Counted from the stretch's first letter, positions 22,070-24,254 are shown. The stretch: DNA of 64,000 nucleotides from Candidatus Caldarchaeum sp. (GCA_038844785.1 JAWBRA010000003.1:5363-69362), one strand, 5' to 3'. Notes: generated from the letters alone by a model not told the origin. Numbers and translations are program-made.

Positions 22070-22175
22070 TTGGGCCCGGTGGGATTCGAACCCACGGCCA
22101 CCAGGTTATGAGCCTGGCGTTGCAGAAATATTACAAGCGGTAATATTTTCTCTGACCTAGCTGAGCTACGGGCCC
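22070..22175 (-). tRNA. tRNA with CAU anticodon (elongator Met or Ile2 type) carrying a roughly 30-nt intron at a non-canonical position (D-arm/position 25-26); coordinates approximate to 1 nt
   Basis: The reverse complement gives GGGCCCG/CGGGCCC acceptor stem, GCUC..GAGC D-stem, CCAGG-CUCAUAA-CCUGG anticodon arm, GUGGG-UUCGAAU-CCCAC T-arm and discriminator A. CCA is not encoded. An extra 30 nt (AAAAUAUUACCGCUUGUAAUAUUUCUGCAA, forming a 9-bp hairpin) sits between the D-stem and anticodon stem. Confidence 0.75.
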
Positions 22176-22397: not shown

Positions 22398-23186
22398 TCA
22401 GGAGTTAGCGTGTTTTTCGTGTAGTGGTTTATTGCTTGGGATTGGGCTGCTTTTCTGAGCCTGTGGTTGTGTCTTCTGTTGTTGGGTTTGTAGAGGCCGA
22501 CGTAGCATAGGGTTTTCCTCAGACCGGAATACGTGTAGTAGGAGGTCTGCTAGAGCTGCTTTTCCATAGAGGCTTTTGTATGTTAATCCTAGCTGTCTGC
22601 ATGTTTCATCATATCTGTGTAATGTTGTCTTCGCCATCCTTATTATCTGACGTGCCAGCCTGTCTTTGTCTCTGTCTATGGGTTTTACAGCTTCTGCGGA
22701 CGTTTTAAACAGCTTCAATAACCTCGGAAGCTTAAGCTGTTCAGTGTATTCGTCGATGAGCTTCATCAACCCAACATATTCTACTGTAACCTCCACGAAA
22801 CAACCTCCATCCATCATCGATAATATTTTCGCATCATTCTCATCGTTCTTGGACAGCGACAGCCTTTCTCTGTAGGCGGTTAGAAGGTCTGTCCTCTTCA
22901 GCCTGAAAACCCTGACGTCACGGCTGAGGAGCGCTGAAACGTCGTCATACATGGTTGGCGGTATGATGTCCACGTAAACCTCATCGCCTTCGGCTGCAGG
23001 AACGTCAACAAGACGAGATGTCCTAACACAGTGGTGTCCGTCGAAGACAACATGCGGCCTAGCTCTACGTCCACCGTTTGCAAACGCGTGAACATCGACG
23101 TAAAACCTTCTTGCCTCTCTCCCGAGAGGTTTATAAGCCTCTTTTCGGGGTCTCATCTCATCAGGCACCATTTCGTAAAAGTTCAA
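22398..23186 (-). CDS. hypothetical protein; N-terminal region resembles an IS110-family DEDD (RuvC-like) transposase domain, C-terminally truncated, with a Gln/Pro-rich tail
   Basis: FYVDVHAF (compare GIDVxK), acidic AAEGDE, and KNDENDAKIL (compare the K.D..DA motif) with IS110-like spacing. There is no Ser/'SG' catalytic Tnp region. Low-complexity tail QTQQQKTQPQAQK. TTG start. Confidence 0.3.
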   Translation of the reverse strand: MNFYEMVPDEMRPRKEAYKPLGREARRFYVDVHAFANGGRRARPHVVFDGHHCVRTSRLVDVPAAEGDEVYVDIIPPTMYDDVSALLSRDVRVFRLKRTDLLTAYRERLSLSKNDENDAKILSMMDGGCFVEVTVEYVGLMKLIDEYTEQLKLPRLLKLFKTSAEAVKPIDRDKDRLARQIIRMAKTTLHRYDETCRQLGLTYKSLYGKAALADLLLHVFRSEENPMLRRPLQTQQQKTQPQAQKSSPIPSNKPLHEKHANS

Positions 23187-23223: not shown

Positions 23224-24254
23224 CTAGGAGACGCGTTGAAGCCCTCCCCTCCAGACCGGTGGGTAGGTTGACCTCGGCATCACAACTCTTGTCACGTCAA
23301 CGGCAACCCCCTCGGATGCGTTGACCATCTCCTCGCTGTCCATCAACGCCGTGCCGAAACCAACCAGCTCGCCTTTCAAGGTAAGCACGGCTACAAAGTC
23401 ACCCTTGGCAACGCCTGTCTCAAGCTTGCTAACACCAGCAACCATCAAGTCCGCCCCATGGCAAACGGCGTCCACAGCAGTGTCCAAAATGTAAACCTTC
23501 GGAACAAGCCGGACACACTCCTCAACAGGTTGGACGAGGTTCTTCAAGGTTTCCTCACGGCCCGTCTCCCTGTAATCTGTCCAAGCCTCGTAGAGCTCGA
23601 GCAAAGTATGCGAATCATCCTCTGTGAAAGGCCCTGCACGAGTTCTCCTAAGCTCCTCCATGTGCGCGCCGACGCCCAAGTATTCGCCGATGTCGTGGCA
23701 CAGCTTTCTAATGTAGGTCCCGCCAGAACAGCCAACCTTAAACAAAACCTTACGCCCCTCCCTCTCAACCAACTCAATGTAGTAAACCGTTCTGATGCGG
23801 GGTTTTCTTGCGACAGCCGCTCTCACAGGCGGTACCTGGTATATCTCACCTGTGAAAAAATCGAATGCCTCAGCCAGACTGTCGTCGGAAACATCGCCGT
23901 GGAGCTCCATCAAGCAAACATATTCTTTCCCGCTGTGCATCAAAGCCGCAGCCGCCTTCGTCCCCTCTCCAAGCATCAAGGGCAGGACGCCGGAGACAGC
24001 GGGATCTCCCCGAAAGCTTCTAGGGTCCCGCCGTGTCCAGCCTGGTTTATCTCCAGAATTTTTTTCACGATGTAAGCTACTTCATGGCTCGTCGGCCCCC
24101 TCTGCTTGTCCAAGTTAATAACACCGAGCCGAAGCAGTTCGTCCACACTCCTTTGATGAGGTGGTTTCCCGTAGCTAGGGTCTGTTTCGGCCTCGCGTCT
24201 AACAAGCATCTCCCGGCTAACGTTCCACGGAGGCTGGGATTTCATATCTTTCAA
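23224..24254 (-). CDS. cbf5: H/ACA RNP pseudouridine synthase Cbf5 (TruB family), reading frame interrupted by a 14-nt insertion (candidate mini-intron)
   Basis: Exon-1 frame ...GVINLDKQRGPTSHEVAYIVKKILEINQAGHGGTL, then 14 nt, then exon-2 frame DPAVSGVLPLMLGEGTKAAAALMHSGKEYVCLMELHGDV... collinear with Cbf5 through the PUA domain. The ORF track shows this as two ORFs (23976..24254 and 23224..23979). Confidence 0.8.

Follow-up and report, generated by a model that had tools for sequence, protein, structure and literature searches.

The H/ACA pseudouridine synthase gene cbf5 of a hot-spring archaeon, a Candidatus Caldarchaeum species, is interrupted, within the codon for the catalytic aspartate of its product, by 14 nucleotides that, judged from sequence comparison and RNA folding, very probably constitute a bulge-helix-bulge (BHB) type intron removed from the pre-mRNA by protein enzymes, and represent the Caldarchaeales version of the cbf5 intron known from the Sulfolobales and Desulfurococcales. 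The gene lies on the minus strand of a 64,000-nt stretch of DNA (GCA_038844785.1, JAWBRA010000003.1:5363-69362), which is referred to below as the window. The original prediction had read this insert as a splicing-endonuclease intron, and the expectations of that reading that could be examined at the level of sequence all held, namely the fold and its cleavage rule, the intactness of the gene in relatives, and covariation over 34 loci. Within the known class of such introns, the window intron is mechanistically unremarkable; its novelty lies in the host lineage, a size below the published minimum, and a clean, minimal BHL architecture. Also new, and extending beyond the window intron, are how broad the family is and how systematically the genes that carry it are mis-annotated.

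Positions 24040..23981 of the minus strand read CTGGACACGGCGGGACCCTA GAAGCTTTCGGGGA GATCCCGCTGTCTCCGGCGTCCTGCC. The frame of exon 1 (...AGHGGTLEAFGEIPLSPASCP, then a stop) forms a 92-aa ORF at 23976-24254 that starts at 24254 or 24245 and that, after ...EINQAGHGGTL, continues as EAFGEIPLSPASCP to a stop ending at 23976. The frame of exon 2 (...MMLGEGTKAAAALMHSGKEYV...) forms a 251-aa ORF at 23224-23979, whose TTG start at 23979 lies 3' of DPAVSGVLP. Deletion of 14 nt at 24021-24008, 24020-24007, 24019-24006 or 24018-24005 gives the identical GHGGTLDPAVSGVLPLMLGEGTK, with ...AGHGGTLDPAVSGVLPLMLGEGTK... as the product across the junction. The in silico spliced product is 338 aa long from TTG 24254 and 335 aa long from ATG 24245, and contains DKCLD (2.7e-17), TruB_N (2.6e-25), TruB_C_2 (2.2e-24) and PUA (5.1e-21) domains; this architecture, together with the catalytic Asp in GTLDP, is obtained only after in silico splicing. 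The product aligns end to end with P. furiosus Cbf5 (3lwo_A, E=9e-111), and the junction is free of gaps (query AGHGGTLDPAVSGVLP, chain AGHGGTLDPKVSGVLP). The claims made at the outset about the reading frames, that Cbf5 is colinear with its orthologues up to ...AGHGGTL and then resumes with DPAVSGVLP... once 14 nt are removed, that four boundaries are equivalent, and that the catalytic Asp and everything downstream are lost without removal, are all confirmed. The gene order EMC3/TMCO1 - L34e - cmk - L14e - cbf5 is the usual archaeal one, and the same synteny is found in relatives. The predicted spliced mRNA would read ...GGGACCCUAG/AUCCCGCU... across the junction, without AAGCUUUCGGGGAG, and would encode the junction peptide ...GTLDPAVSGVLPL... 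The features of the locus are collected in Table 1.

Table 1. Features of the cbf5 locus and of the nearby tRNA gene, in positions of the window; here and in the text a slash within or between sequences marks a splice site
Feature	Position	Strand	Basis or content
cbf5 exon 1	24020..24245	-	ATG 24245, alternative TTG 24254; DKCLD and start of TruB_N to ...AGHGGTL, plus G of the catalytic Asp codon
cbf5 exon 2	23224..24005	-	AU of the Asp codon and PAVSGVLP... to stop 23226-23224; remaining TruB_N, TruB_C_2, PUA
Predicted 14-nt BHB/BHL intron, AAGCUUUCGGGGAG	24006..24019	-	Bulge cleavage rule; one of four frame-restoring options
Outer helix h, 5' strand, ACGGCGGGA (exon 1)	24026..24034	-	Fold; pairs with 24004-23996
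Outer helix h, 3' strand, UCCCGCUGU (exon 2)	23996..24004	-	Fold
Central helix H, 5' strand, CCCU (exon 1)	24022..24025	-	Thr wobble base and Leu codon bases 1-2
Central helix H, 3' strand, GGGG (intron)	24008..24011	-	Invariant in 8 Caldarchaeum-clade lineages
10-nt loop, AG/AAGCUUUC	24012..24021	-	5' splice site between 24020 and 24019; stands for 5' bulge and inner hairpin
3' bulge, canonical 3 nt, AG/A	24005..24007	-	3' splice site between 24006 and 24005
tRNA-Met(CAU), 105 nt	22071-22175	-	Rfam match
tRNA-Met intron, 30 nt	22149-22120	-	D-stem 3' strand (24/25); relaxed H-B-h' flanking motif

The minimum free energy fold of the 61 nt from 24045 to 23985 (-32.8 kcal/mol, z = -3.4) consists, in order, of a distal 6-bp helix, the 9-bp outer helix h, the 3-nt bulge AGA, the 4-bp helix H, and a terminal loop that holds the 5' junction. 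The same fold is returned at 60, 75 and 85 C, and the outer helix is thus kept in silico up to 85 C. The original prediction had held that no clean canonical motif could be drawn by eye; the computed fold provides a clean relaxed BHB made up of h, a 3-nt bulge, a 4-bp H and a loop. Compared with the canonical hBHBh' motif, it has the 4-bp helix as well as the 3' bulge, and the 5' site is located in the 10-nt loop or beside a weak stem of 2-3 bp (G26-C34 and A27-U33) that the fold places across it. Of the two flanking helices, for which at least 2 bp each would be expected, h has 9 bp and h' has 0 bp in the canonical register. As the 5' site sits in a 10-nt loop and h' has 0 bp, the motif is assigned to the relaxed hBH/BHL class, and as this site is without a defined 3-nt bulge and inner helix, its cleavage calls for a broad-specificity enzyme.

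In known cbf5 introns cleavage occurs between the second and third residues of the bulge (PMC2738675). Counted from the 4-bp helix, this point lies 2 nt in the 3' direction on each strand, so that cuts are predicted between 24020 and 24019 and between 24006 and 24005. Cuts at these positions excise the 14 nt of AAGCUUUCGGGGAG, rejoin the G/AU of the catalytic Asp codon, and restore GHGGTL-D-P. The structural rule and the protein-based borders are mutually independent and they agree; folding of the junction as hBH/BHL, which had been proposed as a check, selects a frame-restoring border, and on this model 24019-24006 are most likely the true borders. The segment named originally, 24020-24007 (GAAGCTTTCGGGGA), was correct in its length of 14 nt and in restoring the frame, but its border is placed one base away from the likelier one. 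The intron, originally described as ultra-short, is at 14 nt below the 16-44 bp published for cbf5 introns, yet it is not the minimum, since versions of 13 and 11 nt occur elsewhere. When the entire window was scanned for generic BHB patterns (H 4/4 with G-U pairs allowed, h at least 6, L 11-120), 959 matches came up versus 679-750 in block-shuffled sequence; being uninformative, the scan served neither as evidence nor as a search for further introns. This loose pattern is not rarer than expected by chance; the significance of the motif rests on the identity of its register with the protein-defined borders and on the comparative data.

The proteins nearest to the spliced product (65-93% identity) carry the names Candidatus Caldarchaeum or Caldarchaeales and have all been deposited as C-terminal fragments of 250-268 aa; in the protein database, no full-length annotated product exceeds 63% identity to the spliced Cbf5. 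The 93%-identical protein occurs on 16 contigs from JGI and NCBI assemblies; eight of these, drawn from JGI metagenomes and from NCBI MAGs, were retrieved, and all have the same split and a 14-nt insert, with an 89-aa DKCLD ORF, corresponding to the ATG start, that abuts a 250-aa ORF. The intron of these relatives, AAACAUUCGGGGAA, differs from that of the window at 3/14 positions, all of them in the loop or a bulge, and the exon flanks differ at 1/41 compared bases. In eight lineages of the Caldarchaeum clade (68-93% Cbf5 identity) the intron has a constant length of 14 nt, and GGGG, AG/A and A(A or G)/A are fixed. The interior 7-mer is hypervariable and different in each (AGCUUUC, AACAUUC, GGUGUUC, GAUCUUC, ACAUGGU, AAGCUUC, GACCCUC and ACCAUAC). 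A scan of metagenome contigs for the spliced (cDNA) junction of the Caldarchaeum clade gave 0 matches.

The insert extends well beyond this clade. The exon-2 alignment was scanned against one genome per species (GTDB representatives), and among the best 80 cbf5 loci 36 carry an insert of 11-35 nt between GxGTL and (D)PxVxG, at the identical nucleotide and in the same register. It is present in Caldarchaeum (14 nt), Pelearchaeum (22), Terraquivivens (20) and other Nitrososphaeria/Nitrososphaerota (11, 13, 14, 20 and 25 nt), in 20/26 Bathyarchaeia (11-32 nt), in a member of the Thermofilaceae (22) and in Culexmicrobium (20), and in 3/3 Jordarchaeia (31-35 nt), which belong to the kingdom Promethearchaeati, or Asgard archaea. 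Among the same 80 loci no insert was found in any Methanobacteriota, Halobacteriota, Archaeoglobi or Woesearchaeota locus, nor in the Methanomethylicia, the Wolframiiraptor/Geocrenenecus branch of the Caldarchaeales, or one sub-clade of the Bathyarchaeia. Most of the introns of at least 18 nt possess an inner hairpin (h') of 3-8 bp and are therefore canonical BHB motifs, whereas the introns of 11-14 nt are without it. A general scan of metagenome contigs for spliced junctions yielded 8 genomic intronless alleles from Bathyarchaeia and 0 cDNA. Those alleles whose nearest sampled relatives bear the intron read exactly CTAG/ATCCC, which is the predicted spliced junction. Three of the eight (L096, L099 and L100), 81-85% identical to the intron-bearing loci L032 and L054 and reading ...GGGACYCTAG/ATCCC..., have the appearance of natural deletions made precisely at the predicted splice sites. 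An 83-aa S. solfataricus fragment derived by OCR matched, as a query, only 8 short metagenomic proteins. In one uncultured contig (L089), whose exon 2 is 72% identical to this fragment, a 23-nt intron occurs in the identical register; the Asp codon of another, otherwise fragmented locus (L090) is without an intron.

Covariation was assessed over 34 junctions whose register had been set by the protein motif alone, and the counts that follow are without correction for phylogeny. Helix H is paired at 4/4 positions in 31/34 junctions and at 3/4 in the other 3, so that 97.8% of H cells are paired. The pair formed by the Thr wobble base and the intron is C-G in 20 cases, U-A in 10, A-U in 3 and U-G in 1, and is never unpaired, and that formed by the first base of the Leu codon is C-G in 31 and U-A in 2. 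Overall pairing amounts to 81.8%, compared with 34-51% after a shift of the 3' partner by 1-3 columns, and the covariation score, also without phylogeny correction, is 0.183 versus 0.109 in shuffled data, with 0/500 shuffles reaching 0.183. Compensatory changes recur in separate clades, with CUCU opposite AGAG in Bathyarchaeia and CACU opposite AGUG in Jordarchaeia, and further compensatory H pairs in L049 and L065 (CCUU with GAGG and CCUU with AAGG). Both bulges are conserved over the 34 junctions, one being AG/A (or AG/G) and the other A-N/A, the 3' bulge having the form A-N-A in all 34.

The constraint is also visible in the exons. The first four consecutive pairs of the outer helix can be formed in 27/37 intron-bearing genes versus 1/44 intronless genes. 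The codons concerned are Gly GGG, Leu CUA or UUA, Asp GAU and Pro CCC, and in the intronless Wolframiiraptor branch, which is nested within the Caldarchaeales, they have drifted to GGA, ACR, CUC and CCA. From these counts and this drift it follows that the RNA structure is under selection only where the insert exists.

A disrupted reading frame invites other explanations. One is that cbf5 is inactive because of a 14-nt insertion or a frameshift, being either a pseudogene or an artefact of sequencing or assembly, and it is true that the gene as read is out of frame and has lost its catalytic Asp, and that public pipelines call two ORFs. Against this, the 8 fetched contigs of the 93%-identical relative, from JGI and NCBI, and seven further lineages down to 65% identity have the same split and a 14-nt insert. 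A decayed downstream ORF in relatives, which the original prediction had named as the sign of a true pseudogene, is not what the relatives have, because in them the insert position and the split are the same and both exons are intact and equally conserved (exon 1 49-70%, exon 2 51-75%); the spliced ORFs are full length in 37/37, and the insert keeps a covarying structure. To our knowledge, cbf5 is otherwise near-universal in archaea, which also weighs against a pseudogene, and this explanation is regarded as extremely improbable. Another reading, that ribosomes shift frame (+1/-2) or hop over 14 nt and that no RNA is spliced, gains something from the lack of an in-frame stop in the overlap of the two frames, both in the window and in the other 14-nt versions, and from the exon-2 frame being open upstream (...DPRSFRGDPAVSG). 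However, a frameshift product would contain 4-5 additional residues in the invariant GTLDP catalytic loop, and the Asp codon in its context is recreated by exact excision only. Homologous inserts at the same nucleotide contain in-frame stops in 25/37 cases, and the 5/5 introns of a length divisible by three read Glu-Ala-stop. Lengths are distributed 22/10/5 over the residue classes 2/1/0 modulo 3, and there is thus no pressure to keep the frame. What is conserved, moreover, is a set of RNA helices and bulges in the EndA register rather than slippery sites, and recoding is accordingly judged very improbable. Pseudogene, sequencing error and recoding are, in sum, effectively excluded. That the gene is genuinely split, the N-terminal (DKCLD) and C-terminal (TruB/PUA) polypeptides being made separately and then assembled, would agree with both ORFs having possible start codons and being accepted by gene callers. 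Here the break would fall in the middle of the TruB_N fold, the Asp codon, divided as G/AU, would be whole in neither ORF, with the exon-2 ORF beginning at TTG 23979, past DPAVSGVLP, and the conserved BHB would be left unexplained, so that this arrangement can be given hardly any credence.

A different question is whether the introns of the various lineages are one and the same. Presence in 36/80 of the best species-representative loci, in at least five classes and at the same nucleotide, implies either an origin much deeper than hitherto placed or a strong insertion hotspot. A real intron might have been inserted independently in several lineages, without homology to the crenarchaeal cbf5 intron, if the exon sequence GGNGGGACNCUAGAYCCC acted as a proto-splice hairpin that repeatedly captured short BHB inserts. 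The codons for GG..DPA are intrinsically self-complementary (Gly GGC or GGG versus Ala GCC or Pro CCC), intron interiors have no sequence in common between phyla, and the distribution is patchy. Against such repeated capture, the insertion point is the same to the nucleotide in 37/37 introns, with the same bulges (AG/A and AN/A) and the same H register, presence tracks the Cbf5 tree and the nested absences resemble losses, and alleles of precise loss exist. As the complementary codons are found in only 1/44 intronless genes, the hairpin follows the intron and does not precede it, and independent insertion is considered unlikely. The alternative scenario, that a single ancient cbf5 intron predates the divergence of the major Thermoproteati classes (Nitrososphaeria including Caldarchaeales, Bathyarchaeia, Thermoprotei and Culexarchaeia) and is shared with at least one Asgard class, the Jordarchaeia, and so is not an innovation of the Sulfolobales and Desulfurococcales, can be put forward tentatively, at a little under even chances. 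The intron would since have stayed at a single nucleotide position and become as short as 11 nt in places, would have undergone precise loss on repeated occasions, and would have shaped the synonymous codons of the catalytic motif.

Whatever its age, an intron spliced by protein enzymes suggests a simple pathway for the window gene. In exon 1 ACGGCGGGA can pair with UCCCGCUGU of exon 2, and CCCU of exon 1 with GGGG of the intron, presenting the 3' splice site in the 3-nt bulge AG/A and the 5' splice site, also AG/A, in the 10-nt loop. A heterotetrameric (alpha-beta)2 splicing endonuclease would cut both sites, 2 nt 3' of H on each strand, and an RtcB-type ligase would join the exons, recreating the catalytic Asp codon G/AU, while the 14-mer would be discarded. 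As the unspliced mRNA would yield only a 92-aa fragment without the catalytic residue, active Cbf5 presumably depends on splicing. The genome of Ca. Caldiarchaeum subterraneum is reported to encode a heterotetrameric endonuclease and to have tRNA introns at non-canonical positions, in a paper that leaves cbf5 unmentioned (PMC3082918), and (alpha-beta)2 EndA, which is reported for Aigarchaeota, cleaves relaxed BHL motifs (PMC5829648). A second substrate predicted for a splicing endonuclease of broad specificity lies within the window itself. The nearby tRNA had been said to contain a non-canonical intron, and removal of 30 nt from the tRNA matched by Rfam at 22071-22175 indeed leaves a perfect 75-nt tRNA-Met(CAU) cloverleaf. 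The intron motif has an H of 3/4 bp, bulges AG/A and AA/C, and a 9-bp inner helix, and its non-canonical nature again implies a broad-specificity enzyme. ARAGORN found no tRNAs in the 64-kb window and misses the gene at 22071-22175; being too permissive for trial deletion, it was not relied on for the intron borders, which were set by the D-stem. The strict BHB scanner (H 4/4) missed this intron because its H is 3/4.

These findings have consequences for annotation. Deposited Cbf5 in the Caldarchaeum clade, in many Bathyarchaeia and in other MAGs consists of an 89-aa 'DKCLD' ORF and a 'Cbf5' of about 250 aa without the catalytic Asp, and gene callers as well as marker-gene and completeness tools will mis-score intron-bearing cbf5. 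A simple BHB-aware rule (CUAG/...A/AY at GTL-DP) would correct the annotation. The 11-14-nt versions define a natural minimal mRNA substrate for broad-specificity EndA, composed of an outer helix, a 3-nt bulge, a 4-bp helix and a loop of 7-10 nt, and the exon codon constraint shows cleanly how RNA structure selects synonymous sites inside a catalytic motif. A single ancient origin, if true, would make this, among introns in archaeal protein genes, the oldest and most widespread one known, and would imply a functional reason for keeping an intron in a catalytic codon, such as a coupling of Cbf5 output to EndA/RtcB activity.

The nearest known system is the cbf5 pre-mRNA intron of the Sulfolobales and Desulfurococcales (Watanabe et al. 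2002; Yoshinari et al. 2006; Yokobori et al. 2009, PMC2738675), which is 16-44 bp long, breaks up the catalytic residue's codon, mostly forms a relaxed BHB, and is spliced by EndA (PMC2738675). Its gain has been placed in the common ancestor of these two orders, with secondary loss in some lineages, and the Thermoproteales, Thaumarchaeota and Korarchaeum were scored as free of it in 2009 (PMC2738675). Reviews of 2020 and 2023 still present it as restricted either to crenarchaeota or to a small set of related archaea (PMC7714728, PMC10485636), and for archaeal pre-mRNA introns a 2025 paper on EndA structure has no citations beyond the same three classic papers (PMC12397907). No report of a cbf5 intron in Caldiarchaeum/Aigarchaeota, Bathyarchaeia, Culexarchaeia or Asgard archaea was found in a literature search that covered few subscription papers. 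The window intron shares with the published ones the gene, the catalytic-codon site (as compared by published description), the relaxed BHB cut between bulge residues 2 and 3, a short, non-coding sequence, a length free of multiples of three, and loss in some sub-lineages. It differs in its host, a member of the Caldarchaeales (Aigarchaeota; NCBI phylum Nitrososphaerota) and not of the Crenarchaeota sensu stricto, in its 14 nt, and in having no inner hairpin (BHL), and its splicing is predicted here. It thus falls outside the published range of 16-44 bp in Sulfolobales and Desulfurococcales only, a range that reflects the limits of the 2009 sample rather than mechanistic criteria.

Non-canonical tRNA introns with relaxed hBH, HBh' or BHL motifs, which are substrates of (alpha-beta)2 or epsilon2 EndA (Marck & Grosjean 2003; PMC5829648; PMC12397907), share with the cbf5 intron the predicted enzyme and the geometry of a 4-bp helix with cuts 2 nt 3' on each strand, and 14 nt lies within the 11-175 nt range of tRNA introns (quoted in PMC2738675). 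The cbf5 substrate, in contrast, is an mRNA coding region without a tRNA body, and codons make up its outer helix, so that synonymous sites are constrained. In Haloferax volcanii, the tRNA splicing endonuclease also processes an mRNA, that of HVO_1309, at a BHB (PMC7714728), but that intron resides in a 5' UTR rather than an ORF, in a euryarchaeon with an alpha2 enzyme, forms a canonical BHB, and is unconnected to a reading frame or catalytic codon. A more distant parallel is the splicing of HAC1/XBP1 in eukaryotes by IRE1 and tRNA ligase or RtcB, where protein enzymes likewise excise a short mRNA intron independently of the spliceosome, the reading frame is changed, and RtcB-type ligation follows. 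There the endonuclease is IRE1, which recognizes stem-loops and is regulated by stress, and the two systems are analogous, not homologous.

An intron at the identical nucleotide of cbf5 was found in 36 of the 80 best species-representative loci, with lengths of 11 to 35 nt, and its carriers include the Caldarchaeales, other Nitrososphaeria, Bathyarchaeia, Thermofilaceae, Culexarchaeia, and the Asgard Jordarchaeia. Public records split the intron-bearing gene in two, into an ORF of about 89 aa with the N-terminal DKCLD domain and an ORF of about 250 aa, and it is the latter that carries the name Cbf5 and yet lacks the catalytic Asp.

The intron is absent from some Bathyarchaeia alleles, namely those on the JGI metagenome contigs L096, L099 and L100, and likewise on L095, L097, L098, L101 and L102. 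At the very point where splicing is predicted to join the exons, these intronless genes have the sequence CTAG|ATCCC (the bar marking the predicted cut), their exon codons are still adapted to a motif of the bulge-helix-bulge (BHB) kind, and their nearest relatives have introns of 28-32 nt. This looks as if the intron had been lost recently and precisely, the outcome to be expected if the gene had recombined with a copy of the spliced mRNA.

The archaeal cbf5 contigs L030, L031 and L063 (Bathyarchaeia-like or other) belong to MAGs that carry the labels Terriglobia, Candidatus Sulfotelmatobacter and Anaerolineales, and are probably mis-binned. On L090, a JGI 3300041075 contig with 59% identity to a S. 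solfataricus fragment, cbf5 was called as three ORFs of 37, 123 and 142 aa; its GHSGTLDP motif is unbroken and the breaks fall elsewhere in the gene, where they could represent frameshifts, assembly errors or other inserts.

Features around cbf5 in the window
Feature	Position	Strand	Basis or note
tRNA-Met(CAU)	22071-22175	-	Rfam, 52.2 bits
tRNA-Met(CAU) intron, 30 nt	22149-22120	-	D-stem 3' strand, between positions 24 and 25
ORF, 262 aa, between cbf5 and tRNA-Met	22398-23186	-	no match in the Pfam comparison
Overlap of L14e-like ORF with cbf5 exon 1 start	24217-24254	- (both genes)	ORF coordinates

Upstream, the L14e-like ORF stops at 24217 and cbf5 starts at ATG 24245 or TTG 24254, and this same-strand overlap of some 30-40 nt suggests that rpl14e and cbf5 are co-transcribed. 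The downstream context differs in the window because a gene for an Fe-dependent repressor takes the place of the 262-aa ORF in the 82-93% identical relatives checked (L081-L088, L091 and L092); on gene order, an insertion or rearrangement beside tRNA-Met is possible.

The tRNA-Met gene was called by Rfam and received no call from ARAGORN. Its intron has a relaxed motif, with a 9-bp inner helix, a central helix of 3/4 bp, and the bulges AG|A and AA|C; the 5' bulge AG|A is common to this intron and that of cbf5 in the window. Shorter than the window's 14 nt are the cbf5 intron of L014 (13 nt) and those of L021 (GGGCUGGGGAA) and L025 (AGAGGGGGGAG), both of 11 nt, in which only 4 nt lead from the 5' cut-site nucleotide to the GGGG strand, the intron side of the central helix. 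The latter two are of the same size as the shortest tRNA intron cited for archaea, 11 nt (PMC2738675).
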